The notes: a model not told the origin generated them from the sequence alone. Shown: positions 448 to 25,476, counted from the first letter of the stretch. The stretch is DNA of 64,000 nt from Spirochaetia bacterium (GCA_965198005.1 CBDAOI010000002.1:640001-704000), one strand, 5' to 3'. Made by a program: numbers and translations.

Positions 448-450
448 GCC

Positions 451-2798: not shown

Positions 2799-2805
2799 CG
2801 CGCCC

Positions 2806-3579: not shown

Positions 3580-3647
3580 TTTAGTACTACAACGCTACAA
3601 CGAGGGTTGGAGTTTGGACAAAATCCTCAGTTCGTCCGGGCCAGCAG

Positions 3648-4916: not shown

Positions 4917-4926
4917 TGTCGGGGAC

Positions 4927-5470: not shown

Positions 5471-5499
5471 GGCGCCCCCAGGAGCTGCATCAGCGCTTG

Positions 5500-5933: not shown

Positions 5934-5934
5934 G

Positions 5935-6562: not shown

Positions 6563-6687
6563 CCATGTATCTCCTGTTGGCCCTTTGTTACGCTACCATG
6601 CCGGGCAACAGCGCGATAATCTGGTGGGCGGTCAGTTCCACACCGTCGCGACCATCGGGTGGAGCGTAGACAGAACACGTAAATGCG

Positions 6688-9600: not shown

Positions 9601-12000
9601 ACCCGCTGCGCACGCCTCAACCAGACGCTCGCGAAGCAGGATGCGGAGCGGATGCCCAGCGGGAGTCTTGGCAACCACATGTGCTTGTAACCAGTCCCGT
9701 AACAGGTTCTGGGCGTACTCACCGAAGCGCCATGGTGTTCCGTCCTCAAGCAGCAGCGTGATGATGGGCTCAACGGCGGCGAGGTTGACGATGCCGTTCT
9801 CGTCGCGGTGTCGCTGATCAACCAGACGGGCAAGCCGCCGCAGGCCCGCGGCGTCATCGGCAAGCAGACCGGGCCACGCTTCCCGGAGTAGCGCCTTGGG
9901 ATCGGCAGTCGAGAGCAGGGCTTCACCGGGCACGTCACCCCAGCGGGCGCAATGGCCTGCGTCGACGAGCCGGTCAAACGATGCCTGCAACACACCGAGC
10001 CTGCCGCTTATCGGAGTCCTGGTGGTGTCGGGCCGCCCCAACCATGCCTCACTCGCGAGTCGCGCTGCCGATAGCGACCAGCGCGGCGCGCCAGCTTGCT
10101 GAATTCTTGAAGCTGGGGTGTCGTCGGACAGCAGAAGTCTTGCGACCGCGTAGCGTCGCACCTCGTCGTGCGCGAACTCGGGACCGATCATGAACGGATC
10201 GTCCGGCGAAGTTCGCAGTAGTCCGTCGCCGCGCAAACCGCGGAGAACAGCGGGATCGATCTCCCTGATGACTCCGAAGCGTTCGCCGCCTGCGAGGTCG
10301 AGATCGGCGAATCGAAGGAGTGCCACATCCCGCGCGTCGGGATATCCTCTGTCGGACTTGCCGTGTCGGCGGACGAGCCCGCACCACACCTCTCGCATCG
10401 CATCTGCCTCCGTCAGCGGAACGCCGCGGACGCGGCCACGAACAAGCAGATCAGCCACGACAAGCCGGCGCAGGAGTTCTCGCGACCGTGCGTTGGAGTT
10501 GAGCTTGCTCAGCTCGGGGAAGGTCCGAACGATTACGTCTATCTCGCTGTCGGTCAGCGAGGCCACGGTATGGTCCGTGACATCGGTGCCGAAGCGCTTG
10601 GTGAGTATGTCTCGCACGACCTGGATGCTGTCGACCGAGGTAACCGCGATTACCCTCACGTCGCTTTCCTGAGCTGCGTCAACCATGTAGCGGAATGCGT
10701 CTTCCAGGCCTTCCGCCACGGCGTCTGCGCCGTCAACGATGAGCATGCGTTGCGGTGCACTCAGTTCGCCCAGAATTGGCGAGAGCGGGCAGCCCAAGAT
10801 GGCCTCAAACTCGACCGTCAGCTTGGGGATGTGGCGCAGGTTGATGCACAACGCCTGCAGGCTGTCCTGGTCAGCGGTGCACACAGCGGTGATGCCCAGG
10901 ACCGTGAGTGCGCTCTTGCCTACACCTGACTCCCCGCTTGCGACGACAGCCAGGGCGTCCCCCGCAGTTGCAACCAGCTTCGCGACCGCATCGCTTCGAT
11001 CGAGGCGTACGCGGCGACCGCCGCCACTTGCAGTGATCTCGTCGCGCACCGATGCAACCGCCCTGCAATGAAGATGTTCGAGCGTCTGCCAGCCCTGCTT
11101 GTGGCGTCGCGTCGTCGAGTCGAGCATTGCGTGCACGTCACGTCGCAACAGCTTGAGATCGACTCGCGCGGATTTCGGCGAATACTCACCGGCAAGGCCG
11201 ACGAGCCGATCGCGAAGTGCCGACGCTGCTGTGAGATCAGAACCCCGCGCTACCGATATCAGGCTGTTCGCTACGGCCGACCAGTCCGTCTCGTCCGGTG
11301 ACTCGATCCGCGGCATCAAGACGGCGAGCCGCGAGAGCAGCTCCCACGTGCGCCGCTCTACCAGCGCTACGTCGGCACAGGTCACGCCGAGGTCGTGCAG
11401 CGCACACTTCATGAGGGCCACGACTTGATCGAGCCTGCCGCGAACGGCAGCTTCGAACTTTCGTGGCGTGCGGACGAGATCGAAGAATCCGGACGCGTCC
11501 AGCTGGTCCTTGGCAAGGTCGGCCAGCCTCGCCAGTTGCTCGGCGTGTGATTGCGGTCCGGCAACAACGAGACCGAACCGGTGTTCCGGTCCGTCCGCTG
11601 ATGTGGTGAGCAAAGCACGGACGAATTGCCGGACAAGCTCTTGCGTCGACTGGTCACGCGGTACGAACCTCGGTGAACGCCGAATCCCGAGGGCGAGCAC
11701 CAGCGACGGCTGCCGATCTTCGGGGCGTGCTGCGTACACGACGAGATCGTCGACCGGGTGGTCCGGGGCCTGCTGGAACGCGACGCTCACCACGCGACGA
11801 CCGTCTCCGAGTTCGCTCGCACCATCGCCAACGAGTAAGTGAGCGAGGTACTGGACCGCTACCTTCCGCTCGAAGGTTACGCCGCCGGCGCCGCTAGCAT
11901 AGGGGCTCGTGGCGGCTGCCAACCCCACTGTAGCACTGCTGCCGCCACTATCCTGCGCCCCACTTGTCAACCCCGGGATAACTTCGCTCATTTCGATCAT
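6688..12000 (-). CDS. Large STAND-like ATPase (1770 aa): N-terminal restriction-endonuclease-like domain, NTPase, long helical C-terminus; Avs/AVAST-like candidate
   Basis: GGVTFE..VA..YL and FQQ..PVDDLVV at the N-terminus; Walker A GESGVGKS; Walker B MLIVDGAD; intact 5.3-kb ORF overlapping the upstream stop (ATGA). Confidence 0.7.
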   Translation of the reverse strand: MIEMSEVIPGLTSGAQDSGGSSATVGLAAATSPYASGAGGVTFERKVAVQYLAHLLVGDGASELGDGRRVVSVAFQQAPDHPVDDLVVYAARPEDRQPSLVLALGIRRSPRFVPRDQSTQELVRQFVRALLTTSADGPEHRFGLVVAGPQSHAEQLARLADLAKDQLDASGFFDLVRTPRKFEAAVRGRLDQVVALMKCALHDLGVTCADVALVERRTWELLSRLAVLMPRIESPDETDWSAVANSLISVARGSDLTAASALRDRLVGLAGEYSPKSARVDLKLLRRDVHAMLDSTTRRHKQGWQTLEHLHCRAVASVRDEITASGGGRRVRLDRSDAVAKLVATAGDALAVVASGESGVGKSALTVLGITAVCTADQDSLQALCINLRHIPKLTVEFEAILGCPLSPILGELSAPQRMLIVDGADAVAEGLEDAFRYMVDAAQESDVRVIAVTSVDSIQVVRDILTKRFGTDVTDHTVASLTDSEIDVIVRTFPELSKLNSNARSRELLRRLVVADLLVRGRVRGVPLTEADAMREVWCGLVRRHGKSDRGYPDARDVALLRFADLDLAGGERFGVIREIDPAVLRGLRGDGLLRTSPDDPFMIGPEFAHDEVRRYAVARLLLSDDTPASRIQQAGAPRWSLSAARLASEAWLGRPDTTRTPISGRLGVLQASFDRLVDAGHCARWGDVPGEALLSTADPKALLREAWPGLLADDAAGLRRLARLVDQRHRDENGIVNLAAVEPIITLLLEDGTPWRFGEYAQNLLRDWLQAHVVAKTPAGHPLRILLRERLVEACAAGDRRLAKEREAEPAQGPAEQRPLGPKRRNLPLFGLLLSALRRLFGQAYKGAVRTPKGVEKARRLAEHHKLFAEIGYDGRRRRQRPDVPHELTDETVLELLALLGPDLGDRGEAILRRVARDAPHRLAPTVEELLTGNALASFGRGLLAHLTEAYYLDDEADATDLDDGVRDHRNRGFGHPHATWYRGPFKPLFQSDFHHGVAVLNRLLNHAARNRARSMATPRSLRPLPNDETVRLSETELEITGADRRYVGDEHVWRWYRGTGVGPYPCLSALQALERVCDQLIETDIPLRTVVSILLDGCESLAMVGLVVGLLIRHLERAGDLLDSYLAEPFVWRIDVTRVVNEGSGFAADSEGLVASERRNWSLREAAMFMGVRADENRAAELRAIGDKLLTNARRHFVSSRDHELAESEAPAGESIEKALMPVRIWASCLDRDSYQALEASDGLYISPTPPDDVLQALEPSNEEMHRFQEATRLFVRYHVDPKKEGAQAIAPDELAADIAIARNLLESPPSLVAHDPWDTAALIAAAALEAHLLDGADLEDDALSFAAETVLRVGEGEASPRQFEFEDTYYEHGADRSAARALPLLLLPIAARLRTLIDKADGWVAFERAARAGLNLAQAVSNEVRLHLARSLDRVWNTPCAVDGRCHHEVGWSLATQTMRRCVLGGWDRATGRRVALALEEPMAKSLASADDHSILASRLDAAIRALAPAAVADICVSTRAHDLLSTLLAAQRRSLLSRGLPDADLRGSHTLVSARALLTLAEHGDDAAIYEHIDAYADSPALLGTLLRALSAAAEETPDRAATARRVWPSVVRHVLAPNADYTPFRDGLYGDMALGSLLPNAAGDVSFLYPEVHANPIAWWEPLDMQAEVEAWLSVAEGRGRCVDRLISFLGALASETQVRTGLSWVAQLALADPAHAATHSFMLPDWLIEIRGTAVNAGHSDGWQEVVDSLVVAGVTRLAPYSE

Positions 12001-14411
12001 CGCCGTCTCGATGCGGCAAGCTTGTTGCGCACGTCTTGCGCAACTTCCTGCACCTCACGTGATACGCGGGGATTCAGCCCCGACTCCTGCTGCAGCGCCG
12101 TTACCAGCGGGAGCAGAAGGTGAGCTGTGGGCGACGCTTGGATCTGCTCCAATGCGTATGCCGGTTCCAGGTGGGCGGAAAATCCGGTCACGGCGAGTGC
12201 AATCCGTGAAGGAAGATCGTCCCGTCCCGCAAGGATCATCAGCAGGGTATGGAGGTCCTGTGCGCAAGCGGCTTGGTCGACGTTCGATGAATCCATCTCC
12301 AGTAGCGCATTGCCCTTCAGTACCAATGCCCTCGCTACCTGGGCGATGACTTCCGGGGCTTCAGATGAACGATAGCGTCGCACAACGGCGTCACAGATCT
12401 CGAGAGCCTCCGCCAGCCGACCAAGGGCGGCAAGTATTACGCCCCGGTACACGAGCGCTGCCGCGACCTTGGCGTCGATTTTCGGGTTGTCGATTCCCGC
12501 GAACCGCTGCACCACATCGTCGAAGACATGCAGGGCATCCGCGTATCGGTGTTGCGCACTGAGAAACTGTCCCTTGTTCGCCAAGGCGTAGGCGACTGCC
12601 TCTGCGATCGCCGACACTGACGAATCGCCGAACTGCCTCACCACTCGGTCATAGACATCAAGCGCCTCGGCCGGTCGCTGCAGCTCACCGAGCAAAATAC
12701 CCTTGCTGACCAGCGCTCTGGCTGCCTGTTCGGCGCTGACGGTGCCACTCCCATATTGGGCCCCAACGTCGTCCAATGCCGCTATGGCCTCATCGGATCG
12801 ACCAACCCCGCGCAACGCGACTGCGCGGCAGAGCTGCGCTTCCGCACGATGCCCACTAATGTCTTCAGCCGTATTCTCTGCAAATCCGCTTATAACCTCC
12901 TCGTAAAGACCGAGCGACTCCTCACATCGATCAAGGTGGTAGAGGGCACGCGCCTTGTTCATCATCGGGACGGCGAGAAAAGCCATCGGGGCCGGAACGT
13001 CTTGTTGGTGAACAAGGGAGAGGAGTCGGTCGCAGAAGTGGACCGCTGCACGATAGTCGCCACGATCGAACGCGTCATTGGATTTCTTCATCGAGTCCGC
13101 GACGAACGCGGTCCCATTCGCCAGCATCTCCAATTCGTCGCGATAGTCCGCCAGATCTGGCAAGGCGAGGAACTGACTGAAGACTTCGACAAGAAACGTC
13201 TGGTTTCGTGGTCGGGTCAGTAAGGCGTCGACGATCATGGAGCCGGCGATCGACGACAATTCCGGTGCGGAGTAGAACGACGCCATGAATCGCAGCAGCG
13301 CCTCGACGACCCGGCCTGGGTCTCCCCGGCGCAGCAGGTAGTAGATGTTGTACATCCGCTCGACGAGGTAGTACTGCTTGCGGCGGGGGCTGCCGCCGTC
13401 GACCTCCACTGCCCGGCGTGCGATCAGGCGCTGGAGTTGGGCGCTGCACTGACTCGTGCCGATCCGCGCCTGGTCGGCTATTTCGCGTGTGGTGGCGGGT
13501 CTCCACAATTCTGCGAGCGCGACGAACACGCGCCGTTCCTGGTGTGGCAGATCCTCGATGTAGCGCTTGAAGTACTCGGTATGAGCGTCTACCAGATCGA
13601 AGAGATCCGACATGAGTGTCGGGAAGGAGAGCTTGCCACCGAAGCGAGCCACTATCGTCATCAGGCGCGGGCTGCCGCCGGTGAGTATCTGCAGCGATCG
13701 AATCTTGCCGTGATTGGCGCTTGCGCCGGACGCCGCCCGCCACAGCGTGGCGCACTCCCGCTCGTCCAGCGGGCGCAGCGTGATGATGCGGAACAGATCG
13801 TAAAGCGCATGTTCGGGATCGTCGATCTCGGCGAAGCGGCTCGTAGCGCTCCCCAGCAACATAATCCGCGGCTCGGTTTGCAGCGTCTTTCTTAGTTGCC
13901 AGCCGGCGTCGGGGTCCGACATTTCCCCGAGCAGCATGTTCAGATTCTCGACCACGAGCACCAGGCGTTTGCCTGCACGGTCGGCAGCGTCGAGTACGGC
14001 GGCGAGGCAACGCTGGGCGAGCGTCTGTTGGTCCTGGATGCGGTGCAGGTCGCAGTACGTGGCGTGCAGGTCGCGCTCTTCGTTCGCTCCGGACTCCTGA
14101 CCGGCCAGGCGGGCCAGACACTCCAACCAGAACTCCCCGCAGGTGCCGACCACGTAGCTCTCCTCGGAGAACACGACCGGCAACAGCCGGTCGGCCAGGC
14201 CGGCTTGGCGGCGTACCTCCAGCGCGACGCGGAGCAGCAGGCTCGTCTTACCGCTGCCGCGGGGGCCGATCACGATCAGGTGCTGGTTCGAGTTGCCGGT
14301 GTTCTCCTGCAGCGTCTCGACGATCGACTCGAATTCGCTCGTGCGCACGCAGAACGCCGCGGCCAGTTCGTCGTCGGTGAGAAAGCCGGGATTGTAGGTT
14401 CTGACAGCCAA
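11997..14411 (-). CDS. P-loop ATPase + winged-HTH + TPR-repeat protein
   Basis: Walker A GPRGSGKT, LVLVVENL, TGGSPRL, HTH-like ATTREIADQARI, repeated AxALxxKG..L TPR units; TTG start at 14411 after AGGAGG. Confidence 0.8.
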   Translation of the reverse strand: MAVRTYNPGFLTDDELAAAFCVRTSEFESIVETLQENTGNSNQHLIVIGPRGSGKTSLLLRVALEVRRQAGLADRLLPVVFSEESYVVGTCGEFWLECLARLAGQESGANEERDLHATYCDLHRIQDQQTLAQRCLAAVLDAADRAGKRLVLVVENLNMLLGEMSDPDAGWQLRKTLQTEPRIMLLGSATSRFAEIDDPEHALYDLFRIITLRPLDERECATLWRAASGASANHGKIRSLQILTGGSPRLMTIVARFGGKLSFPTLMSDLFDLVDAHTEYFKRYIEDLPHQERRVFVALAELWRPATTREIADQARIGTSQCSAQLQRLIARRAVEVDGGSPRRKQYYLVERMYNIYYLLRRGDPGRVVEALLRFMASFYSAPELSSIAGSMIVDALLTRPRNQTFLVEVFSQFLALPDLADYRDELEMLANGTAFVADSMKKSNDAFDRGDYRAAVHFCDRLLSLVHQQDVPAPMAFLAVPMMNKARALYHLDRCEESLGLYEEVISGFAENTAEDISGHRAEAQLCRAVALRGVGRSDEAIAALDDVGAQYGSGTVSAEQAARALVSKGILLGELQRPAEALDVYDRVVRQFGDSSVSAIAEAVAYALANKGQFLSAQHRYADALHVFDDVVQRFAGIDNPKIDAKVAAALVYRGVILAALGRLAEALEICDAVVRRYRSSEAPEVIAQVARALVLKGNALLEMDSSNVDQAACAQDLHTLLMILAGRDDLPSRIALAVTGFSAHLEPAYALEQIQASPTAHLLLPLVTALQQESGLNPRVSREVQEVAQDVRNKLAASRRR

Positions 14412-14424
14412 ATGCCCGCGCCTC

Positions 14425-14750
14425 CTACGGCTCGCCCCGCGGCCTGCGGTCGGCAAATCGAGTGAAGTTCCGAGCGTAACGAGCACGCCACCAGTCCTCG
14501 ATCAGAGCATCCTGCGGGCTTCGGGCATCCTCCAGGTCGACGAACAGCGGCTCCACGTCTCCATCTGCAGCCAGACGGCGTAGCGTCTCGCGCACCAAGC
14601 TCGTCTTGCCCATCCGGCGCTGCGCGGTGAGCAACGTGTGTGCGCCGTCGCGGACCCGTTCGCTCAGCGCCTCTACCTCGGCCTCCCGGTCGAAGAAGCG
14701 GTCGCCATCAACCCAGTTGCCGCCAGCTTTCCTCAGGATGCAACACCTCC
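14425..14750 (-). pseudogene. ATPase remnant with a large internal deletion (N-terminus joined to apparent C-terminus)
   Basis: ILRKAGGNWVDGDRFFDRE..TAQRRMGKTS..FVDLEDARSPQDA joined directly to LIEDWWRARY; its stop lies inside the RBS of the next gene. Confidence 0.75.
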
Positions 14751-14813: not shown

Positions 14814-16190
14814 TCAAGAGCGATTCGGAGCAACGTCATGTGTGCCAGATGAAGCGGAACGCACGCGCTCATCCAGGTCGGGTGGCGCCCGGAACAGATA
14901 GCTGCGCCGCCCGACGCGGCGGCGTTCGAGCAGGCCGAGGTCGGCCAATCTGAACAGGTCGGCGCGAGCGGTAGCGTAGGCGACCGAGTGACTGGTCAGG
15001 TGCGACCGGATCGTGTACTCGGCGTTGGGGTGGCGGACCGCGTGAGCAAGCAGGGCAAGCTGGCGATGGTTGAGGTCGGTCGAGCGCTTCAGAGTCTGTT
15101 CGACCTGTCGTACCTGTTCGATCTTCCTGGCGACGTACGACTCCACGCTGGCGATCGCGCGCAGCATCACGTTGAGCTGATGCACGATGAAGTAGGTCAG
15201 ATCGTTGTCGTCGGTCTCGGTGTACAGAAACGACCGCGCATATTGAGCGGGTGCGGCGGCAAGCACGCTGCTGATCGAGGCGAACTCGAACATCCGGTAT
15301 CCGTGGCGCAGCATCGCCCAGTAGAACAGGACGCGGGCGGTGCGTCCGTTGCCGTCGGCGAACGGGTGGTCGTAGGCGAGCCAGAAGTGGAGGATGACGG
15401 CATGGACGGCAGGATGCAGGAACGAACCGTCGCCAAGGCCGTCGTTGGCGAACTGAACCATCGCCCGCATCCGACCCGGCAATTCGTCTGTCGGGGGTGG
15501 GGAATGGAGCAGGGCTTGATCACGAGTGTCCCACACCTGTACGCGTTGGTCGTCGGGACGTTGCAGGCGACCGGCAGCGTCGGGGTCGTCGAGCGTGTCG
15601 GCGGCAATTATGGCATGCAGATTCAGCACCGCCGGTTCCGTCAGCGGCGCATCCTTCAGCCGGCGGATTGCTTCCATCGCGCGGTAGTTGTTGAAAATCA
15701 TCCACTCGCTCCGGTCCCGCGGCCGCCGTCCCGCGCGGATCATCTCCGCCGCCACGGCACGCGTGGTCGACGCGCCTTCAAGTTGACTGGAAGTGATTGC
15801 CTCCTGGATCAGAGAGTTGACGATGAACTGGTTGCGCGTGTCGGTGTTGGCCACGCCTTCCGCGGCGGCACCGATCCACCCATGGCTCTGGCTGTCGATG
15901 CGATGCAACGCCTCCTGAACCCGGTCGGGCAACAGGTACACGAACGGGCGTCCGCCGGCGTCCCGCAGTGGGAGCTTGCGATACAGCCCGGTGCGGGATA
16001 GCTTGAGCGCCAGCCACCACTCCTCCGGACTCCGTAGTCCTGCCGGAGTGGTAAGGTGACGTAGTGTGTCCCAGTGCAGGTAACGGTTATCAACCGTGGG
16101 GCCGAAACCTCGGCCAAACACCTCGTCAAGTCGCTCGCGATGCCGGACCAACAGCTCACTCAGCGACTTCGGTGTGCGCGGCAACTTCAT
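14814..16190 (-). CDS. Fic family protein with C-terminal winged HTH
   Basis: HPFADGNGRTAR Fic motif; SSQLEG inhibitory-helix-like motif; C-terminal ATARADLFRL. Confidence 0.92.
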   Translation of the reverse strand: MKLPRTPKSLSELLVRHRERLDEVFGRGFGPTVDNRYLHWDTLRHLTTPAGLRSPEEWWLALKLSRTGLYRKLPLRDAGGRPFVYLLPDRVQEALHRIDSQSHGWIGAAAEGVANTDTRNQFIVNSLIQEAITSSQLEGASTTRAVAAEMIRAGRRPRDRSEWMIFNNYRAMEAIRRLKDAPLTEPAVLNLHAIIAADTLDDPDAAGRLQRPDDQRVQVWDTRDQALLHSPPPTDELPGRMRAMVQFANDGLGDGSFLHPAVHAVILHFWLAYDHPFADGNGRTARVLFYWAMLRHGYRMFEFASISSVLAAAPAQYARSFLYTETDDNDLTYFIVHQLNVMLRAIASVESYVARKIEQVRQVEQTLKRSTDLNHRQLALLAHAVRHPNAEYTIRSHLTSHSVAYATARADLFRLADLGLLERRRVGRRSYLFRAPPDLDERVRSASSGTHDVAPNRS

Positions 16191-16191
16191 A

Positions 16192-16265
16192 ACTATCAAT
16201 ATGCACAAAATTGATAGTACCGGACAGGGCTCCATCAGAGAATATCAACCTGTCAAGTATTGATA
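16192..16265. promoter_or_regulatory. Two TATCAA-N11-TTGATA palindromic boxes upstream of fic
   Basis: Boxes at 16194-16216 (extends to ACTATCAAT-N9-ATTGATAGT) and 16243-16265; the second encloses a minus-strand TTGACA. Confidence 0.65.
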
Positions 16266-16289: not shown

Positions 16290-16497
16290 GTTCACGGAGT
16301 GTTCGGCGGCGGTCTGGCGATCGCGGTGCTCTATCTATTCCTGCGCCGCCTGCGCAGCACCGTGGTGGTTGGGTTGGCGATCCCCATCTCGGTAATCGCC
16401 AGCTTCTTTCTCATGTACCTGGGGGGTGTCTCGCTCAACATCATGTCGCTCGGCGGGCTGGCGCTCGGGATCGGCATGCTGGTGGACAGCTCGATCG
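16290..16497 (+). pseudogene. Internal fragment of an AcrB/RND efflux permease
   Basis: [47 protein letters not shown] (RND transmembrane signature); no start and no continuation. Confidence 0.8.
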
Positions 16498-16534
16498 CCC
16501 CGCCGAGCGGCGCGCGGCACGGCAGTGAGGCTCC

Positions 16535-17686
16535 TCATCTGCGAAGGTGCCAGCGGCGGGCGCGGCGGCGGGGGCCGCGGCGGCGGCCGGGGGCGGCGGT
16601 ACGCTGCGGGAGGGGGCGGCCGCGGAGGTGACGCTGGTAGAGGCGGCAGGCGTGGTAGTAGGGCTCGGGGCTGGCGAAGCTGGCGAGCATGTCGGCGCGG
16701 TAGAGTTCCAGCAGGTCGGGGAACAGGTCGGAGCTCATCAGCTCCTCGGCGTGCTCGGGGCGCACGCGCCCGAGGGCAGCCGGGATCATGTGGTTGCGCC
16801 CGAGGAACGCCACCGCGTCGATCAGCCGCGGTGTGAAGCCGAGCCGGGTCAGGAAGCGGCGCGCCACCCGGGCACCGATCTCGGCGTGAGCGAAGAACCG
16901 CTTGTCACCCTGCGGTACCGCCTGCGGCTTGCCCACGTCGTGCAGCAGCAGGCCGAGCGACAGCAACAGATCGGGCGTCTTGCGGTGGGCGAAGGTGGCC
17001 AGCGTGTGCTCCCACACGTCGCCCTCCGGGTGGAACTCCTTGGCGTGCGGAACGTTGGCCATCGCCGCCAGCTCCGGCCACCAGCTCTCCACGATGCCGG
17101 TCTCGTACAGCAACCGCAGCCCCTTCTCCGGCGCGCGGCTGGTCAGGATCTGTTCCAGCAGGTGGCGCTGATACTCGGCCGACACCGGCGGCGCTTCCGC
17201 CTTGATCGGCGCCGAGTCGGGGGTGAAGGCGAAGTGGTAGCGGGAGGTGAGCTGCGCGGCCTCGGCGGTCACCTGCCACCATTCCAGGCCGGCAGGGCGG
17301 CGCACCAGCTCCGGTTTGCGCAGGTCGTAGTAGACCGCGTCCGGATCGAGGAACACGTCCCGACGCGGGTCGAAGCGGAGCTGCTGGACGGTAAACGGAT
17401 AGCCGGTCACCCCACCGCTGTCGCCGCAGCGCACCCACAGCCGCGTGCCGCGGTGCAGCGCCATTGCGTCGACCAGCGGACCGCCGCCGAACTGCAGTTC
17501 GTCCACCAGCGGCGCGATCTCGGCCACCGTGGCGTCAGCGACTATGTGCAGCAACCGCTCACCGTAGTACTCCGGCACCCGGAAGTAGCGATCGAGCGCC
17601 GAATAACTGACCAAGTCGGCGCTGACTCCCGCGTCGTCAAAAGGCGCGAGAACACTGGATGGACTCTCAACGCTCAGACTGGACAC
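16535..17686 (-). CDS. HD-domain protein of the CCA-adding/poly(A) polymerase C-terminal type
   Basis: [40 protein letters not shown]. Confidence 0.8.
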
Positions 17687-17695
17687 TGTTCCGGC

Positions 17696-19960
17696 TCAGT
17701 TCCCAAAGCTCTCCAAGAAGCTCTCGAAGCGGCCGGCGGCTCGCTCTATCGACTCTTGCACCGCAAGGAGCGACACCCCCAGCCGATAGCGCTTCTGAGT
17801 GCCTGATCCCTTGTAGTCGGCTCGCTTTACCACGCTGCAGTCCTCAAGAGCTGGTAACACCTGCTTCGAAAACAAAGTCCAGTCCCTGCCCATGCGCTGC
17901 CTGAACGTGTTTTCGTTAACTCCTGTCGAGCGAAAGAACGCCCGGCACATCCGCTCCGTCAAGACCAGCCGAGCGTCCGGCTCGACCACCTCGATGGCTT
18001 CCTGCTCAAGTTCAGCCGCAGGTGTCGAGATGTCGAACCCGGCGTTCTTCAAGACTCTGAAGATCGTCGCAGGGGCGAAAATCGCCGCTCCTTGTGTCGA
18101 TTGAACTACGGCTAACACTTCGCAGTCGTGCAGACGCGATCGATCAACCCGATTCACTTCTGCCAAGTCGATCCGGCCGAATTGGCAGCGTTCAAAGAGA
18201 CAGTTGTCGATTGTCGATTCAGCAAGTTCGGTGCTCTGGAAGTAGCAGTCGTGGAACACCGCGCCAACTATGTGTCTCTTGCGCAATGAATTTACCGGAA
18301 ATGACATGCGCCTGGCGACAACACCTTCAGCGTCTAGAGCGTCAAGGATGCGCACCAACAGAGCCCCGGAGTTGTCCTTGACGAAAGACGCGTAGGGCTC
18401 AGGCGCACATGCGGCATTGAGAGTCTCTGCCAACTTGCGGAGTGGATGCTCATCGCGCGCCAGCCTGCGCTTGGCAACATCGACGGTCAATTCAGGAAAC
18501 CGTGCAATTCGGAATACGCGACGAAGTTCCGGCAGATCCCCCCTTCCCACAAGACGCGCAACTGATTCGCCGAGGAAGTAATGATAGAATTCATCGTGAC
18601 CGAATCCAAATGCCGTACCGCGCCCAGACGCCGATATGAGCGCATGCTGCCGAATACGATGCTTGATCTGCTTTGTGACCGGCGCGTCCATACGCTGATC
18701 TTCGACGTACAGCTCGGCCACATAGTCGAACACATCCGATGCCAGCATCGCTGTTTCGCTGAGCCACATCTCCGAGGCGATCTCGGCCAGGAGTTCGCAG
18801 TGTTGTCGCTCAGAGAGAAGGGGGTGTGCAACTGCTCCCGAACGATCGATCCACTTGTCGCGCGCCTCGCGGGAAATGATCGACTCGACAAATCGCTCGA
18901 AGTAGAGCTCTCCGTCCCCACCAATCTTCTCGATCAGATCGTCCCGTCCGGCGCTATCGGAAGCGACGTCCATCAGGCGCCGGACGAGCACCGGACGAGT
19001 GAGCAGCGGATGCGACTGATCATGGAGTTTGGCGGCCACCTGAGAGAACAATTCAGACCCGCCTGGGATACCTCGTTTCGCGGCATATTCGGCAAACCGG
19101 TCGCGGTCCCATTTTGACAGATGGATTCGTGCAAAATCCGCACGCTGGCCTTGGAAAGAATCGACCAGCGGAGCTTGTGTACGCAGATCCTTGTATTCGA
19201 AGTATGCGCTCCGGGCGGCAATGAGAATAGTCCCTCGGGAGTCGAGCAGGTTCATGAGATTACCGAGTGCGGTTACCGCGTCGCCCGCTTGGCTCTCCAC
19301 GAACATCTCTTCGAAACCATCCAGAGCGGGCACGATAGCCCCCTTCCTGACCATCCACACCAGTGCGTCATAGTAGAAGAACGGGAACCGCAGCCGATTG
19401 ACCAGGGTTCCGGTGAATACGTCGTCAAAACGGAGGAAGGGACGTCCGCCAAGCGCGATAGGCACCAGAAGCCAGTCGGTTGTCTTTTCCTTGTACCGTT
19501 GCGCTTGTTGTCGCGCAAGGTGATGGATCAGGGTCGTCTTTCCTTCTCCCGCGTCGCAGGTCAGATACACGCCGGTAGAGATTCCGGCCGGCCGCTCGTC
19601 GAGAAGCTCGAGGATGGGAGTAGTCACGGAGTCTACACTCGTTTCCACGTCATCGGGAGACCTGTCCATGCGGTCAAGTTTCTTGCCGGCGGGCTCGATG
19701 AAGTGAGGCTCCTCGGGTATGTATGAGAGGATTCTGTCGGCAAGAATCGGCAGTCTAGCGATCCGTTGGAAGATCCAATCCTCTGCCCTCTGGCTGGTGC
19801 CGTTCTCGTCTACCCAGAGGCCGTCGACACGCTCCGTAACCCTGGATTGTATGAGATCGTCTCTGATTTCGACAAGAAGCTCGCCATGCTCAATGTCTAC
19901 ATCGGCTGGTTTGTCAGCGAACGCTGTGAGGATGCTTCTGAATTCGTTAGTGTCCATCAT
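17696..19960 (-). CDS. NACHT/STAND-like NTPase with pentapeptide-repeat region
   Basis: Walker A DAGEGKTT, Walker B PALDGFEE, PLLTRP, F.H..F..YF; pentapeptide-like FHDCYFQSTELAESTIDNCLFERCQF. Confidence 0.75.
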   Translation of the reverse strand: MMDTNEFRSILTAFADKPADVDIEHGELLVEIRDDLIQSRVTERVDGLWVDENGTSQRAEDWIFQRIARLPILADRILSYIPEEPHFIEPAGKKLDRMDRSPDDVETSVDSVTTPILELLDERPAGISTGVYLTCDAGEGKTTLIHHLARQQAQRYKEKTTDWLLVPIALGGRPFLRFDDVFTGTLVNRLRFPFFYYDALVWMVRKGAIVPALDGFEEMFVESQAGDAVTALGNLMNLLDSRGTILIAARSAYFEYKDLRTQAPLVDSFQGQRADFARIHLSKWDRDRFAEYAAKRGIPGGSELFSQVAAKLHDQSHPLLTRPVLVRRLMDVASDSAGRDDLIEKIGGDGELYFERFVESIISREARDKWIDRSGAVAHPLLSERQHCELLAEIASEMWLSETAMLASDVFDYVAELYVEDQRMDAPVTKQIKHRIRQHALISASGRGTAFGFGHDEFYHYFLGESVARLVGRGDLPELRRVFRIARFPELTVDVAKRRLARDEHPLRKLAETLNAACAPEPYASFVKDNSGALLVRILDALDAEGVVARRMSFPVNSLRKRHIVGAVFHDCYFQSTELAESTIDNCLFERCQFGRIDLAEVNRVDRSRLHDCEVLAVVQSTQGAAIFAPATIFRVLKNAGFDISTPAAELEQEAIEVVEPDARLVLTERMCRAFFRSTGVNENTFRQRMGRDWTLFSKQVLPALEDCSVVKRADYKGSGTQKRYRLGVSLLAVQESIERAAGRFESFLESFGN

Positions 19961-20676
19961 GTAACTCGCGGCAAGAGGCTAAGCTCTACGTAATTGGCCC
20001 TGCCGCCCCGCCGGTAATCGGGCCTTGTGCTGTGTCCCGCCACCGTATGTACATGGACGACACCGACACCGAACTGGAGCGCAGTATTGATCGCAGGCCA
20101 CAGGTCGTCGTCGGAGGATACGACGGCAATCTGCTCGGCGTTCGCATATACGTTGAAGAACACGTCAGCGGACAGCATCGTATCGACGAGCTTCTGTTCG
20201 CGACGCCGGACAATAAGCCTGCTCGTCACTGGGCAACTCTGCTCGGGGCACTCTCCTCGCACGAAGAAGTCAAAGCTCGGACGAAGCGGGCAACTACCGG
20301 CCAGTTGGCAGCCGGCCACTGTTGGATCCGTGAATTCGAGCCAGCGCGGGGCCGTCTTCGATCGTAACGTGTACACTATGTGGTGCGCCGGATCACACCG
20401 CATGCTGTAGGCAAGTTCGACGTTCACCATGAGCGCGCGCCGATCGTCGTTCAACGGGACCAGTGTCGGGCCGGGCAGTTCCCTCTCCATCTGTTGCGCA
20501 TCGCGCGTAGGAGAAGTCTCCTCGTACCACCCGCCGTAGAATCGGAGGTCCACTCGGCGTTCGCGTGCAGCTATGTAGTTGGGAACGATTGCCGACATGA
20601 TCCGGTTTATGAGGTAGGCGATGCCCTTGCGACGTTCTTGCTGCGGAATGTTGTAGTAGTCGACCAGAACGTCCAT
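19957..20676 (-). CDS. NYN/PIN-like nuclease with Cys-rich insert
   Basis: LVDYYN, RFYGGW, EQKLVDTML..D, VVSSDDDLWP acidic motifs; insert C-x5-C...C-x4-C; ATG at 20676. Confidence 0.75.
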   Translation of the reverse strand: MDVLVDYYNIPQQERRKGIAYLINRIMSAIVPNYIAARERRVDLRFYGGWYEETSPTRDAQQMERELPGPTLVPLNDDRRALMVNVELAYSMRCDPAHHIVYTLRSKTAPRWLEFTDPTVAGCQLAGSCPLRPSFDFFVRGECPEQSCPVTSRLIVRRREQKLVDTMLSADVFFNVYANAEQIAVVSSDDDLWPAINTALQFGVGVVHVHTVAGHSTRPDYRRGGRANYVELSLLPRVT

Positions 20677-20696
20677 GCGGCACGGGCGCCTGTTTC

Positions 20697-21272
20697 CTAG
20701 CCGGTTTCGGCCGATACGACTTCGATCTCGGGGTTTACTTCGTCGCGGAGCACGCTCTGGACGGCCTGCAGGGTGCCCGACACCGAGGCCGGGCAGGTTC
20801 CGCAGGCGCCGACGTAGCTCACCACGACGCGGTTGTTCTCGTAGGCCAGCACGTCCAGGTCGCCGCCGTCGCCCTGCAGGTAGGGGCGCACGGTGCGGTC
20901 CAGCACCTCCTCGATGCGCTGCACCTCGGGCGGCTGGTCGTCGCGCACGTGGCTCACCGGCCCGCCGCTGCCGGCAGCGGCAATCTCGAAGCCGGGATCG
21001 TGCTCCTCGACGTGGTTGGTCAGCACCTGCTTGACCCAATCGGCCACGTCCTCCCACGGCGCCTCGGCGATCTTGGTCACCGTCACCACGTTCTCGAACA
21101 GATGCACCTGCTCCACCACCACCAGGGCAAACAGCGCCTCCACCAGCGGGATGCCTTTCGCCTCCTCGGTGCTGCGGAAGGTCACCTTGCCGGTGGACTT
21201 CACGTCGCGGTTGAGGATGAACTTCATCGCGTCCGGGTTGGGGGTGAATTGGGTCAGTATTGCCACGCCCAT
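20697..21272 (-). CDS. NifU/NfuA-family Fe-S carrier (Nfu_N + NifU_C)
   Basis: TPNPDAMKF; VRPYLQGDGGD..GACGTCP. Confidence 0.92.
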   Translation of the reverse strand: MGVAILTQFTPNPDAMKFILNRDVKSTGKVTFRSTEEAKGIPLVEALFALVVVEQVHLFENVVTVTKIAEAPWEDVADWVKQVLTNHVEEHDPGFEIAAAGSGGPVSHVRDDQPPEVQRIEEVLDRTVRPYLQGDGGDLDVLAYENNRVVVSYVGACGTCPASVSGTLQAVQSVLRDEVNPEIEVVSAETG

Positions 21273-21284
21273 GTCGCTTCTCCT

Positions 21285-21323
21285 TTAATCCTGCGCCTTA
21301 ATCCTGCGCCTTAATCCTGGGCC
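21285..21323. repeat. 13-bp tandem repeat x3 covering the sufU stop codon
   Basis: TTAATCCTGCGCC TTAATCCTGCGCC TTAATCCTGGGCC. Confidence 0.9.
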
Positions 21324-21778
21324 GCCTCGGTGGTGGCCCGGCCCTGGCCGTCGAGGGCGCTCCGCAGTGTATGCCAGGGCAGCGTAGCGCACTTGACGCG
21401 CGCGGGAAACTGCCGGATGCCGCCGAATACCTTGAGCTTGCCGAGCTGATGCGGGTCGCGCGCCGGGTCCAGGTCGCCGGTCACCAGCCCCCGGAACTGC
21501 TCCAGCAGCCGTTCCGCCGCGTCCCGCGCGCGGCCCTTCACCGCGTCGGTCATCATGCTTGCCGAGGCCTTGGAGATGGCGCACCCGGAGCCCTGGAAGC
21601 GGATGTCGGTGATGGTGCCGTCGGCGGCCAGCTTCACCGCCACCTCGTACCGGTCGCCGCACAGGGGGTTGTGCCCCTCCGCGTGGTGGGTGTGACGCTC
21701 CAGCGCGCCCCAGTTGCGCGGCGTGCGGTTGTGATCGAGAATCACCTGCTGGTACAGTTCGCTGGCCGGCGTGCTCAC
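21311..21778 (-). CDS. sufU: SUF system NifU-family protein
   Basis: LYQQVILDH, NPLCGD, GCAISKAS, RVKCATLPW; GTG start overlaps the sufS stop. Confidence 0.93.
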   Translation of the reverse strand: MSTPASELYQQVILDHNRTPRNWGALERHTHHAEGHNPLCGDRYEVAVKLAADGTITDIRFQGSGCAISKASASMMTDAVKGRARDAAERLLEQFRGLVTGDLDPARDPHQLGKLKVFGGIRQFPARVKCATLPWHTLRSALDGQGRATTEAAQD

Positions 21779-23052
21779 GCGAATACCTCGCTCACCTTGG
21801 CGACCGCGCGCGCCAGCGCCGCCACGTCGGAGCTGTCGTTGTACACCGAGAACGCCGCGCGCGCGGTGGCGGGCACCCCGAACCGCTCCATCACCGGCTG
21901 GGTGCAGTGGTGGCCGGTGCGCAGCGCGACCCCCTCCTGATCGGCGATGGTGCCGACGTCGTGGGCATGCACGTCGCCCACGGTGAAGGAGATGATCGCC
22001 GACTTGTGCGCCGCGGTGCCGATGATACGCACCCCGTCGATCGCCTCGAGCGCGGCCGTGGCCTCCGCCAGCAGCCGCTGCTCGTGGCGACGGATGCGCT
22101 CCAGGCCGACGCCTTCGATCCACTCCAGCGCCGCTCCCAGCCCGATCACGCCGGCGATGTGCGGCGTGCCCGCTTCCAGCCGGTTGGGCAGGTCGGCGTA
22201 GGTGGTCTTGGCGAAGGTGACCGACTTGATCATGTCGCCGCCGCCGCGCAACGGCGGCATCGCCTCCAGCAGCTCGCGCTTGCCGTACAGCAGGCCGATG
22301 CCGGTGGGACCGAACAGCTTGTGCCCCGAGCAGCCGTAGAAGTCGACGTCCAGCGCCGCCACGTCCAGCGGCAGATGCGCCGCCGCCTGCGCGCCGTCCA
22401 GCAGCACGCGCGCGCCGACCGCATGGGCAGCCTCGACCAGCTCCGCGGCCGGGTTGATGGTGCCCAGCGAGTTGGACACGTGCACCGCCGCCACCAGCTT
22501 CGTGCGCGGCCCGAGCAGCTCCAGCAGCGCCGCCCACTCCAGCTCGCCGCGGTCCGAGATCGGCGCCACCCGCAGCACCGCGCCGGTGCGCTCGGCCAGC
22601 ATCTGCCACGGCACGATGTTGGAGTGATGCTCCATGTGCGTGATCACCACCTCGTCGCCGGGGCCCAGGTTGGCGCCGCCCCAGGCCAGCGCCACCAGGT
22701 TGATCGAGTCGGTGGTGCCGCTGGTGAAGATGATTTCTTCAGGCTCGGCGGTGCCGAGGAATGCCTGCGCCTGCTCGCGGACGTGCTCGTAGGCGAGGGT
22801 GGCCTGCTCGCTCAGGTAGTGGACACCGCGGTGGATGTTGGCGGTCTCGGCCGCGTAGTGCCGGTACAGGCGGTCGATCACCGCCCGCGGCTTGAGCGTG
22901 GTGGCGGCGTTGTCCAGATACACCAGCGGCCGGCCGTGCACCTCCCGCTCCAGCACGGGGAACTGGGCGCGGATGGCGGCCACGTCCAACGCGGCGGCCG
23001 GCGCCGTGGGGGTCGTGGTCGCGGCGGTCGTGGTCGTGGAGACGGTACTCAT
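21775..23052 (-). CDS. sufS: Cysteine desulfurase
   Basis: YLDNAATT, EHHSN, SGHKLFGPTG, RTGHHC. Confidence 0.95.
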   Translation of the reverse strand: MSTVSTTTTAATTTPTAPAAALDVAAIRAQFPVLEREVHGRPLVYLDNAATTLKPRAVIDRLYRHYAAETANIHRGVHYLSEQATLAYEHVREQAQAFLGTAEPEEIIFTSGTTDSINLVALAWGGANLGPGDEVVITHMEHHSNIVPWQMLAERTGAVLRVAPISDRGELEWAALLELLGPRTKLVAAVHVSNSLGTINPAAELVEAAHAVGARVLLDGAQAAAHLPLDVAALDVDFYGCSGHKLFGPTGIGLLYGKRELLEAMPPLRGGGDMIKSVTFAKTTYADLPNRLEAGTPHIAGVIGLGAALEWIEGVGLERIRRHEQRLLAEATAALEAIDGVRIIGTAAHKSAIISFTVGDVHAHDVGTIADQEGVALRTGHHCTQPVMERFGVPATARAAFSVYNDSSDVAALARAVAKVSEVFA

Positions 23053-24695
23053 GCCGGTGCGCTCCATGCGAGGCGGTCCAGGCGCCGGTGCAGCAGCTCC
23101 AGCAGGCGCGGGCGCAGCCCTGCTGCCGGCAAATCGCCCACCACCTCGTCCAGGAAACCGCGCGCCAGCATCTGCCCGGCCGCGGGCCGCGGGATGCCGC
23201 GGGTCTGCAGGTAGAACATCTGATCCTCGTTGAGGCGGCCGGTGGTGGCGCCGTGGGTGCAGCGCACGTCGTCGGCGCCGATCTCGAGCTGCGGCTTGGC
23301 GTAGACCACCGCGTCGTCCAGCAGCAGGTTCCGGTTGAGCTGGAAGGCGTCGGTCTGCTGCGCCGCCGGGCGCACCAGGATGCGCCCGGCGAACACGCCG
23401 TGGCCGCCGGCGCCCAGCACCATCTTGTACAACTGGCGGCTGGCGCAACTCGGGGCGGCGTGCTCCAGGTAGGTGTGGTTGTCGATCACCTGCGGCGTTG
23501 GCGCGGGTGCGCTGCCGGCAGCCGGGCCACCGGCGGGCGCGCCGCCGAGGACCGTGCCGCCGGCCACCGCCGCCCCGCCCAGACGGCTGGCGGTGCCCGG
23601 ACCCGCCGCCAGCAGGTTGAGGGTGTGCCGCGCCAGCCGGGCGCCGGCCGCCACGCTCAGCGCGTGCAGCTCGCTGTCCCGCTCCTGCACCACCGTGGTG
23701 CTGCCCAGGTCGAAGGCGCCTTCCGCCGCGGCCTGCACCCGGACGTAGGTCAGCGCCGAGCCGGCGCCGAGCCGGATCTCGGTGTCGCCGCAGGTCAGGG
23801 CGGGCGCGCCGCCCCCCGCGTGGCCGGCCGTGCCGCCGGCAGCCGGGGCAAAGGTCTCCACCAGCGTGACCCGCGCGCCGGCGGCGATCCGGATCCGCAC
23901 CCGCGGCGCGCTCAGCACCCCGGCCTCGGTCAGATGCACCAGGTGCACCGGCGCCGCGCCGGCCGCGGCGTCCAGCCGCAGCTCGACGGCGCCCCCGAAC
24001 ACGCGCGCCAACCGGGTGAAGGCATTGCCCGTGGGCCGGGTGAAGGTGCTGCCCGCCGCCGGCGCCGAACCGTCCGCAGGCGCGGTGCCGGCGGCAGGGC
24101 AGGTGCCGTCCCCCGTGCCGATGGGGACGACGACCTGCACGCCCGGAACCACCGTCGCCGGTGCGGCACCACCATCGTGCCAGCCGTCGCGCGGCGCGCC
24201 GTCACGGTTCCCCGCGGCGCGGCCGGCTGCGGCATCGTCTCCCGCCGTGGCGCCGTTACCGGTATCGGGGTCACTGGCGGCACCTGTACCGGCGCGCGCC
24301 GCGCTGCCGCCGCCCGCGGCCGCGCCGTTCACCGTCACCAGGGCGACCGGCTCCCCGGCCACGAGCGCCTTCGCCACCCCGTCGAGCGCGACCGGCCCCG
24401 CCACGCCGCGCCCCAGCCGGTAGGTCTGCTCCACCACCGCCCGCACCGGCGTATGCGCCCACTCCTCGTCGTGGCGCAGCGGGAACCCGGCGGCTGCCAG
24501 TTCCTCCAGCGCCGCGGCCCGCGCCGCCGCGTCCGCGGCATCCACCGCCAACCCGGCGCCGTGCTCCCGGTACAGCTCCTGGAACTGCGCCACGTACGGC
24601 GCCGCCCCGTCGCTGCCCGCCGCCACGCCCGCGCTAGCCGTCACCGCGCCCTGCGCCACCGCCGCGCGCTCGGCCACGGCGCCTGCCTCAGCCAT
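23049..24695 (-). CDS. sufD: Fe-S cluster assembly protein SufD, with Ala/Gly-rich insertions
   Basis: EEW..T, F.GRILV..AQQTDAFQ..RNLLL, KPQLEI.ADDVRCTHGAT, FYLQTRGI. Confidence 0.88.
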   Translation of the reverse strand: MAEAGAVAERAAVAQGAVTASAGVAAGSDGAAPYVAQFQELYREHGAGLAVDAADAAARAAALEELAAAGFPLRHDEEWAHTPVRAVVEQTYRLGRGVAGPVALDGVAKALVAGEPVALVTVNGAAAGGGSAARAGTGAASDPDTGNGATAGDDAAAGRAAGNRDGAPRDGWHDGGAAPATVVPGVQVVVPIGTGDGTCPAAGTAPADGSAPAAGSTFTRPTGNAFTRLARVFGGAVELRLDAAAGAAPVHLVHLTEAGVLSAPRVRIRIAAGARVTLVETFAPAAGGTAGHAGGGAPALTCGDTEIRLGAGSALTYVRVQAAAEGAFDLGSTTVVQERDSELHALSVAAGARLARHTLNLLAAGPGTASRLGGAAVAGGTVLGGAPAGGPAAGSAPAPTPQVIDNHTYLEHAAPSCASRQLYKMVLGAGGHGVFAGRILVRPAAQQTDAFQLNRNLLLDDAVVYAKPQLEIGADDVRCTHGATTGRLNEDQMFYLQTRGIPRPAAGQMLARGFLDEVVGDLPAAGLRPRLLELLHRRLDRLAWSAPA

Positions 24696-25476
24696 CAGCG
24701 CGCCGCCGTCCCGTTGACCAGCCATTCGTAGCCGCGCTCCTCGATCTCCAGGGCCAGCTCGCGGTCGCCGCTGCGGATGATGCGGCCGTCGTACATCACG
24801 TGCACGCGGTCCGGGATCACGAAATTGAGCACGCGCTGGTAGTGGGTGATCAGGATGAACGCGTTCTCGGCGTGGCGCAGTTGGTCGATGCCGTGGGCCA
24901 CCGCCTTCAGCGCGTCGATGTCCAGGCCGGAATCGGTCTCGTCCAGGATCGCCAGCCGCGGCGCCAGCAGCGCAAGCTGCAGAATCTCATTGCGCTTCTT
25001 CTCGCCGCCGGAGAAATCGACGTTGACGTCGCGGGCGGCGAACTCCTCCGCCATCCCCAACAGCCGCAGCTTCTCCAGCAGCAACTCCTCGAAGTCGAGC
25101 GGATCCAGCTCCGGCAGCCCCTGCGACACCGCGATCTCGTTGTAGGCCGCGCGCAGGAACACCGCGTTGCTTACCCCGGGGATCTCGACCGGATACTGGA
25201 AGCTGATGAACACGCCGTTCTTGGCGCGCTCGTCCGGCTCCATCGCCAGCAAGTCGCGCGGGCGCAGGTTGACCTCGTAGCTCACGCCGCCGCCGGTCAC
25301 CTCGTAGGAGGGATGGCCGCCGATCACCCGCGCCAGGGTGCTCTTGCCGGAGCCGTTGGGGCCCATGATCGCGTGCACCTCGCCCGCCTGCACCTCCAGG
25401 TCGATGCCCTGCAGGATCGGAATCACGCTGCCGTTGTCGGCCTTCACGGCCGCGCTCAAGTCGTTGATCCTGACCA

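Follow-up and report, generated by a model that had tools for sequence, protein, structure and literature searches.

A horizontally mobile NYN nuclease and NACHT-like ATPase gene pair beside a spirochaetal suf operon as a candidate two-component immune system

Introduction

What are a small predicted nuclease and a large ATPase doing beside genes for iron-sulphur (Fe-S) cluster assembly? The question is raised by a 64-kb stretch of DNA from a Spirochaetia bacterium (GCA_965198005.1 CBDAOI010000002.1:640001-704000), referred to here as the window, in which two genes of a locus lying entirely on the minus strand separate the suf-associated gene nfu from a gene for an HD-domain protein. The first specifies an NYN-fold protein and the second a STAND NTPase that resembles animal NLR proteins and carries pentapeptide repeats. 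We conclude that this pair is probably an undescribed bacterial immune system and that its adjacency to suf is incidental. The interpretation that we favour, and regard as fairly likely, is a horizontally mobile two-gene immune cassette that has inserted between nfu and the HD gene, and in which an NLR-like sensor activates a separately encoded NYN ribonuclease (RNase).

Organization of the NYN-ATPase locus

The genes and spacers of the locus, in window coordinates, are these:

16535-17686, minus strand: HD gene, with a putative GTG start
17687-17695, minus strand: 9-nt spacer from the ATPase stop to the putative GTG of the HD gene; downstream edge of the inserted block
17696-19960, minus strand: STAND (NACHT-like) NTPase gene, predicted sensor or switch, 754 aa
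19957-20676, minus strand: NYN-fold nuclease gene, predicted effector, 239 aa
20677-20696, minus strand: 20-nt spacer from the nfu stop to the NYN start; upstream edge of the inserted block
20697-21272, minus strand: nfu, with Pfam matches to Nfu_N and NifU

The TGA of the NYN open reading frame (ORF) is shared with the ATG of the ATPase ORF in an ATGA overlap, and this layout, including the distances to nfu and to the HD gene, had been given in a preliminary description of the same DNA, whose coordinates are confirmed here. The two genes are also AT-richer than their surroundings, as described there, with a GC content of 0.56-0.58 over 17750-20250 against ~0.65-0.72 in both flanks. No terminator-like site is present within 16300-21500, and the single promoter-like site in that interval is at chance level; from the sequence, co-transcription of the pair with suf appears plausible.

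The two genes form a fixed unit

In a scan of one genome per species, 150 ATPase relatives yielded 80 loci that were kept (81 including the window), from at least 16 phyla. A NYN gene adjoins the ATPase gene in 79 of the 80 loci, in 78 of them directly upstream on the same strand and in one (L019) divergently, while L049 has the ATPase without a NYN gene. Because these are adjacent genes in 79 of 80 loci from other genomes, the pairing is far above chance. The hidden Markov model (HMM) of the NYN family matches 80 of the 81 loci; the NYN gene is truncated in L013 and L078, and is cut by contig ends in L016 and L052. Spacing is tight, with a NYN-ATPase gap of -4 to +13 nt in 53 of 59 measured loci, and clustering of all ORFs from all loci revealed no other gene conserved around the pair.

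The two proteins have also diverged in step. Pairwise distances among NYN proteins and among ATPases correlate with r=0.89 (56 intact pairs; 0 of 999 permutations gave a value as high), and distant ATPase paralogues with 22-30% identity, found in related genomes, have a NYN-family ORF directly upstream in all eight cases (8/8). Up to three NYN-ATPase pairs occur in one genome. The co-occurrence that the preliminary description had put forward as a check on its two-gene pair is thus borne out, and we conclude that the NYN and ATPase genes are an obligate fixed unit. The cysteine-rich insert of the NYN protein described below is missing from the partners in all eight distant paralogue pairs (8/8), HMM positions ~111-157 being unmatched.

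Some of these loci show rearrangement or decay. In L013 the NYN gene appears to be split, in that a NYN fragment (3763-4002) and a 103-aa remnant (5663-5974) flank a 487-aa ORF on the opposite strand, which may be an insertion element. The relatives in L094-L100 and L086 have one to two further, highly diverged NYN and STAND pairs, in which the ATPase N-terminus cannot be aligned with that of the core family. Two of the diverged pairs look decayed, with NYN fragments of 84 aa and 72 aa and an in-frame TGA in the L096 ATPase.

The small protein is predicted to be a MARF1-like nuclease

The NYN protein has 212 homologues at E<=1e-3 in a word-indexed search. Its AlphaFold model has a pLDDT of 90.3, and a VIA wide structure search with this model returned the NYN domain of MARF1 (5yaa; Z 12.0, rmsd 3.0, 137 of 150 residues aligned) followed by the LabA-like VPA0982 (2qip; Z 10.8, 145 of 162 aligned), with the next match at Z 7.4. 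A Foldseek search of the model against PDB gave no match at E<=1e-3, and the family profile had 0 matches among PDB sequences. Within the family, 29 of 35 members match Pfam NYN PF01936 at E<=0.01, the best at 6.6e-7. Residues invariant in 35 aligned homologues comprise D6-Y-x-N9, R45/Y47/G49/W50, QKLVD(161-165), D171 and D189-D190-D191, and the features of interest map as follows:

20659-20661, minus strand: D6 codon of the predicted acidic site, invariant in the 35 homologues
20233-20310, minus strand: four-Cys insert (C123, C129, C143, C148), a predicted zinc-binding knuckle inside the NYN fold, from the alignment of 35 homologues
20182-20184, minus strand: D165 codon of the predicted acidic site, invariant in the 35 homologues; D171 is a further member
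20104-20112, minus strand: D189-D190-D191 codons (SSDDD motif), predicted metal-binding acidic site, invariant in the 35 homologues

We take D6, D165, D171 and D189-D191 to be the equivalents of the catalytic aspartates of NYN and PIN nucleases, in keeping with the fold match. On the strength of the fold matches to 5yaa and 2qip, the PF01936 matches in the family and the invariant acidic site, the small protein is predicted to be a MARF1-like nuclease of the NYN fold whose acidic site is intact. Of the four cysteines, C123 and C129 do not vary in the same 35 homologues, and C143 and C148 are retained in at least 90% of them; the inserted Cys4 element is probably zinc-binding. Both the retained acidic motifs and the four-Cys insert had been noticed at the outset, and they prove to be features of the family.

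The large protein is an NLR-like STAND ATPase

The ATPase has more than 1000 homologues, and a search of a library with 1.84 billion representative sequences gave 3673, 1093 and 614 matches at E<=1e-3, 1e-10 and 1e-30, respectively. The best 150 library matches align end to end over ~750 aa, and shorter ones are fragments. The predicted structure (pLDDT 82.5) finds NLRC4 (1e-11) and NOD2 (3.5e-11) in Foldseek searches, together with NLRP and NAIP proteins (E 1e-11 to 1e-7). In the VIA search, which aligned residues ~65-600, NLRs score Z 13.5-14.9 (NLRP3 14.9, NLRC4 14.6, NOD2 14.3), and STAND proteins outside the NLRs follow, namely the plant NB-ARC protein NRC1 at Z 13.0, Apaf-1 at 11.4 and MalT at 10.8. 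The mapped features are:

19631-19960, minus strand: N-terminal beta-rich domain, residues 1-110, from model secondary structure; candidate NYN docking site
19535-19549, minus strand: Walker A, G138-E-G-K-T142, invariant in 20 homologues
19307-19321, minus strand: Walker B, D214-G-F-E-E218, invariant in 20 homologues, NACHT-style and DGxDE-like
18095-18325, minus strand: pentapeptide-repeat beta-helix, residues ~546-622, ~4 coils, from profile matches and the strand pattern of the model
17699-17974, minus strand: C-terminal alpha/beta domain, residues 663-754, winged-helix-like from model secondary structure only

A DGxDE-like Walker B is typical of NACHT proteins. R250, H439 and H455 are likewise invariant in the 20 homologues, and the two histidines fall in the predicted winged-helix region of the model, where they are candidate equivalents of NLRC4 H443. 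The protein is a STAND NTPase, and its model appears closest to the NACHT clade, with the plant NB-ARC and Apaf-1 scores not far below those of the NLRs. No family in Pfam, NCBIfam or PADLOC is matched by residues 1-110, and an Atlas look-up with residues 1-112 gave nothing at or above 0.9, the scores of 0.79-0.83 being at chance level; NCBIfam searches with the window NYN and ATPase proteins returned nothing useful. One distant paralogue ATPase scores 25.3 bits against Pfam NACHT. By folds and motifs, an NLR-like STAND NTPase stands beside an NYN-fold protein, and to this extent the earlier proposal of a STAND sensor with a nuclease is upheld.

The pentapeptide repeats reported earlier are genuine: the family profile matches the structures of MfpA (2bm4, E 2.4e-6) and a McbG-like protein (2xt4, E 2.7e-6), Pentapeptide_4 is matched in 18 of 20 family members, and the model has a strand ladder at residues 548-611 that is a pentapeptide beta-helix. 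MfpA and Qnr mimic DNA, and the preliminary description had gone on to suggest that a DNA-mimic region detects phage proteins and activates an RNase in trans. On this view the pentapeptide region of the ATPase would be a mimic of B-form DNA, a bait for phage DNA-binding proteins whose capture switches the ATPase on. The existence of a true beta-helix speaks for the idea, but its dimensions do not: the helix has ~77 residues in ~4 coils, whereas the MfpA and Qnr models span 183-218 positions, and the MfpA/Qnr equivalog scores are 11.9-12.7 bits against cut-offs of 240-490. The invariant positions of the region are core Phe and Cys residues, and in the available text of the bNACHT study pentapeptide repeats also occur in other STAND proteins, in the role of a general scaffold or a sensor (10.1101/2022.07.19.500537). 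We consider DNA mimicry improbable, and this part of the earlier proposal is not supported.

Conservation across 74 ATPase sequences is highest in the nucleotide-binding domain (entropy 1.22), and the helical, pentapeptide and linker regions are the most variable parts (entropy 2.25-2.93). Such a contrast between a conserved nucleotide-binding domain and a variable C-terminal half is what one would expect if the protein were a STAND switch that senses through its C-terminus. The same data bear on the direction in which the two proteins might act. The polarity could be reversed or shared, such that NYN senses or processes nucleic acid, for example by cutting phage or host RNA into a ligand, while the N- or C-terminal domain of the STAND protein delivers the output. 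ATPase domains 1-110 and 663-754 have no assigned function, the predicted zinc-binding insert of NYN could bind nucleic acid, and no fused form was found that would fix the domain order, all of which would suit such an arrangement. Characterised STAND and NLR proteins, however, have the nuclease as output and the C-terminal repeats as sensor, as far as the available texts describe them (10.1101/2022.07.19.500537; PMC13581612), and within the pair it is the C-terminal half of the ATPase that varies most and the catalytic residues of NYN that are invariant. A reversed polarity is accordingly unlikely in our estimation, and we retain the ATPase as presumptive sensor and NYN as presumptive effector.

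The pair is an insertion with a patchy distribution

Full-length orthologues are present in 5 of 41 related genomes, and the junction between nfu and the HD gene can be compared among them. It is empty, with nfu followed directly by HD, in G001, G010 and G013; it holds the NYN-ATPase pair in the window's genome, G009 and G003; and in G005 and G007 it holds an unrelated module of GntR and ABC-ATPase genes on the opposite strand. The presence of this other module in place of the pair marks the junction as a recurrent insertion spot. RNA-library contigs from co-occurring relatives without the pair (three runs) join 20701 to 17602/17605, which delimits the inserted block. Alignment of the junctions with empty sites revealed no clear target-site duplication or repeat, and no integrase was found at the edges. 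By comparison of these sequences, the pair is an insertion that is compositionally foreign, accessory and horizontally mobile.

Two loci from the same genus, L092 (8064-10140) and L093 (7966-10280), show the alternative cargo at nfu|HD: opposite in strand to its surroundings, it comprises genes for a GntR regulator and an ABC-transporter ATPase together with an unassigned ORF.

These comparisons bear on the opening question. The pair could be a housekeeping or regulatory RNA-processing module tied to the suf/nfu operon or to the HD (CCA-enzyme-like) gene, and its tight spacing (20 nt to nfu and 9 nt to HD), the lack of a terminator-like site and the recurrence of the arrangement in two related genomes (L001 and L004) would agree with this; so would one RNA contig that bridges nfu and NYN, though this contig, having 8 mismatches, is assigned to a relative. 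The distribution already argues against it: suf context is common to only 3 of the 81 loci, counting the window together with L001 and L004, nfu adjoins HD directly in G001, G010 and G013, orthologues are confined to 5 of 41 relatives, and the pair is compositionally foreign. The housekeeping interpretation is in our view highly improbable. The pair does lie appended to the suf operon, as the preliminary description had it, but nothing in the empty or otherwise filled nfu|HD sites or in the 3/81 suf context indicates that it is functionally tied to Fe-S assembly.

The RNA libraries offer a limited view of the pair itself. In one study, four metatranscriptome libraries contain contigs that fall within the NYN, ATPase and HD genes and match them exactly, at a depth of 2-4; nfu coverage is much higher, up to 57, and mostly of variant sequences. 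The ATGA overlap is not crossed by any contig that reaches 31 nt or more in each direction, and parts of both genes are uncovered. The organism and the sequences of the pair are present in RNA libraries, and expression of the pair is possible.

The ATPase phylogeny, built with FastTree, likewise points to horizontal spread. It requires 27 changes of phylum label against a minimum of 15, and phyla are mixed with strong support: Lonsdalea is nested in Pseudomonas, Heliomicrobium and Chthoniobacterales fall inside a proteobacterial clade, and a Binatia sequence falls inside the Spirochaetota clade that holds the window. The pair is found in cultured Pseudomonas, Dyadobacter, Mucilaginibacter and Larkinella, the carriers including Pseudomonas sp. 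GM41 (WP_008153666.1 / WP_008153665.1) and Dyadobacter koreensis DSM 19938; blastn with the Lonsdalea pair gave no match in 5,426 E. coli genomes.

A mobile pair of this kind could also be a selfish addiction module akin to toxin-antitoxin systems, with the NYN protein as a toxin restrained by the ATPase and the whole kept by linkage and horizontal spread. Tight predicted translational coupling, horizontal spread and residence in variable islands, where toxin-antitoxin modules also gather according to the available part of PMC5499597, are all as this would have it, as are the decaying copies (truncated NYN in L013 and L078, and the in-frame stop in the L096 ATPase). But an NLR-like NTPase of 750 aa whose C-terminal half varies is an untypical antitoxin, no plasmid or phage matches exist among the records searched (below), and the ATPase of L049, which has no NYN partner, is hard to square with a pure antitoxin role, if still compatible with one. 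We judge an addiction module to be quite unlikely, and return to the immune cassette.

Defence genes lie near many of the pairs

Up to two neighbours of at least 180 aa on each side of the pair were scanned against PADLOC, comprising 255 proteins from 73 loci. At least one clear defence neighbour is present in 33 of the 73 loci; this is a raw share, and the background rate is generally expected to be much lower. The neighbours include type I, II, IIG and III restriction-modification genes, Gabija GajA/GajB, QatC/QatD, and DarT or DarG, as well as Menshen NsnA, Hma, SoFic, AbiD, HEC-04, HEC-06 and several PDC candidates. In L076 (Rubrivirga sp. IMCC45206 chromosome, 1-13500) the pair is enclosed by a type 1 BREX operon, whose genes run BrxC, PglX, pair, PglZ, BrxL. 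Matches to RmuC (L028) and RtcR (L049) are ambiguous and were left uncounted. In L004 and L010 we set aside the PADLOC matches to mad3, SspA and DndA, taking them for look-alikes of the SufC/SufS or ABC type.

In the window, the second gene downstream of the pair, past HD, encodes a 473-aa Fic/DOC protein (14814-16235, minus strand) with a PADLOC SoFic match of 2.3e-37. With this match just past the HD gene, the pair has other defence-like genes close by in the genome from which the window comes.

A proposed mechanism and its weighing

From this defence-island context, together with the folds and the obligate pairing, we infer a role in immunity. At rest, the NTPase would be an ADP-bound monomer. 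Its variable C-terminal half, consisting of the helical region, the short pentapeptide beta-helix and the alpha/beta domain, would recognise some infection cue, upon which nucleotide exchange would lead the NTPase to oligomerise in the manner of NLRs and Avs proteins. Once assembled, the oligomer would switch on the NYN nuclease, the product of a separate gene, with its predicted zinc-binding insert. Probably it would do so by bringing together NYN copies bound to the conserved N-terminal domain of the ATPase, and the active nuclease would cleave RNA such that phage replication is stopped or the infected cell is killed.

A broader form of this proposal, on which we are evenly divided, is that the ATPases are a large and ancient NLR-like receptor family (614 core clusters at 50% identity, with thousands in the wider superfamily) whose members lack an effector of their own, each being obligately paired with its own NYN (MARF1/Regnase-type) RNase, with up to three diverged pairs per genome. 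This would be a two-component immune module that current defence catalogues have missed, with a compact pentapeptide sensor for an infection cue.

Several observations weigh against an immune cassette of this design. The defence context is incomplete, since apart from the raw nature of the 33/73 share, 40 of the 73 loci have no defence neighbour, and some of the PADLOC neighbour matches, such as lone methyltransferases, may not be defence genes. PADLOC v2.0.0 (2023) itself has 0 families that match either the NYN protein or the ATPase at E<=1, a result that also agrees with the earlier statement that the pair was not recognised as a named system. Profile scores for the window proteins fall below curated cut-offs throughout: Pfam NYN PF01936 reaches E 0.0097 and 16.9 bits against a cut-off of 24.2, Pfam NACHT PF05729 reaches E 0.039 and 14.2 bits against 26.7, with 0 of 20 family members matching NACHT at E<=0.01, and Pentapeptide_4 reaches E 6e-4. 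Because of these scores the identification of the NYN and NACHT domains in the window proteins rests on folds, and because the NACHT cut-off is missed we call the ATPase NACHT-like and not a Pfam NACHT member. No fused NYN-STAND protein was found among 1397 longer-NYN candidates, which is weak evidence, nor among the ATPase library matches, so that physical coupling of the two proteins lacks "Rosetta stone" support. A tblastn search with the ATPase, covering 50,697 phage and 72,556 plasmid records, found no homologue and so lends no support to carriage on mobile elements. The RNA-library contigs are compatible with DNA carry-over. Finally, HEC-09, a single gene that combines HTH and MARF1-like NYN domains, gave no protection in tests according to the available text (10.1101/2024.01.29.577857).

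Relation to known systems

The bNACHT proteins (10.1101/2022.07.19.500537), as described in the available text, resemble the window ATPase in several respects. The central NTPase of the window protein scores highest against animal NLRs, its C-terminal region has repeats, pentapeptide repeats being among the bNACHT sensor types, and the pair has a defence-island context. Mutation of a winged-helix histidine at the position of NLRC4 H443 hyperactivates bNACHT16 and bNACHT25 in that study, and the window ATPase family has an invariant histidine in its predicted winged-helix region, a candidate equivalent of H443. The difference lies in the effector: bNACHT and Avs proteins have it fused at the N-terminus, while the window ATPase has a small N-terminal domain and an obligate, coupled nuclease gene. 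None of 20 members of the window ATPase family reaches Pfam NACHT at E<=0.01. The clade may already sit in the tree of Kibby et al., whose supplementary tables lie outside this comparison.

A survey by Lee et al. (Nature 2026; PMC13581612) treats, in its available portion, Avs/AVAST and 589 prokaryotic STAND clades. These share with the window pair the STAND logic of pattern recognition and, as we propose for the pair, activation of nuclease effectors through oligomers or tetramers, and their defence association was likewise inferred from neighbourhood and effector type. Avs proteins differ in having fused effectors and mostly TPR-like sensors of at least 400 aa, as against a compact putative sensor of ~350 aa with a pentapeptide helix and a presumptive effector in trans in the window family. 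The main text of the survey, in the version available, contains no "NYN", "PIN", "pentapeptide" or "operon". In six of its supplements neither "pentapeptide" nor any of five accessions of cultured homologues occurs, although the family may be in the larger tables MOESM3 and MOESM4, which were outside the search. The NTPase clade may therefore be listed in earlier STAND surveys without its partner.

MARF1-like NYN or PIN nucleases have been proposed as RNase effectors of defence loci in HEC-09 and HEC-03, in the accessible text of 10.1101/2024.01.29.577857, and in this the window pair is similar. HEC-03 also combines an ATPase with a PIN-like nuclease, but its ATPase is of the ABC type and not STAND. 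The PADLOC library holds HEC models, of which HEC-04 and HEC-06 matched neighbours, and none matches the window pair. To MARF1/LabA-like NYN proteins (PF01936; PMC5499597, available passages) the likeness is one of fold (Z 12.0 and 10.8) and conserved Asp; the window protein differs by its ~45-residue four-Cys insert and its lack of an OST-HTH/LOTUS domain. The NYN classification in PMC5499597 mentions no NACHT or pentapeptide partner in the passages covered. The DNA mimics Qnr, MfpA and McbG, and HalA of Hailong, share the right-handed pentapeptide beta-helix, but that of the window protein has ~4 coils, is embedded in a 754-aa STAND protein and scores 12-21 bits against equivalog cut-offs of 240-490.

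A literature search found no paper on a NYN and NACHT/pentapeptide pair, and none for six homologue accessions. Kaur 2020, Kaur 2021 and Matelska 2017 (PMC5499597), in the parts available, place NYN or pentapeptide repeats in other architectures only, and public records label the homologues "hypothetical", "pentapeptide repeat-containing" or "NYN domain-containing". By this comparison NLR-like STAND defence with a fused effector is known, and what appears to be new is the two-component design, an NLR-like receptor with a separate NYN RNase.

Receptors of the STAND and NLR type are central to what connects innate immunity in bacteria with that in eukaryotes, and those characterised so far carry the effector on the same polypeptide. 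If our interpretation is right, the two-component design would be useful for dissecting how oligomerisation drives effector activation, the large and functionally obscure bacterial NYN/LabA family would gain its first defence role, and annotation tools would gain an entry that they now miss. The cultured carriers, together with the published NACHT histidine trick, make direct testing feasible, including by a phage-independent assay.

Other features of the window

The likeness of the HD gene product (16535-17686) to CCA-adding enzymes is confined to their body and HD half (PolyA_pol_RNAbd and HD); it covers positions 176-343 of 466 in TIGR02692, and the protein has no nucleotidyltransferase head. 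An HD gene adjoining nfu is kept across the genus, with 72-86% identity.

On the other side of the locus, GC content rises to 0.76-0.81 at 23250-24750, inside a 558-aa SufBD-core ORF (23049-24725). The Pfam match of this ORF begins at residue 267, and its N-terminal half is either an unusually GC-rich extension or the product of an over-called ORF.

Beyond the SoFic gene lies an 829-aa protein with AAA_16/nSTAND1 and TPR matches (11997-14486, minus strand), whose gene overlaps by 4 nt with a 1770-aa ORF (6688-12000) that has no Pfam match and a faint match to Avs4 (5e-4). From its sequence, the segment 6688-14486 (minus strand), with a GC content of ~0.60-0.65, may be a second STAND-based candidate system.

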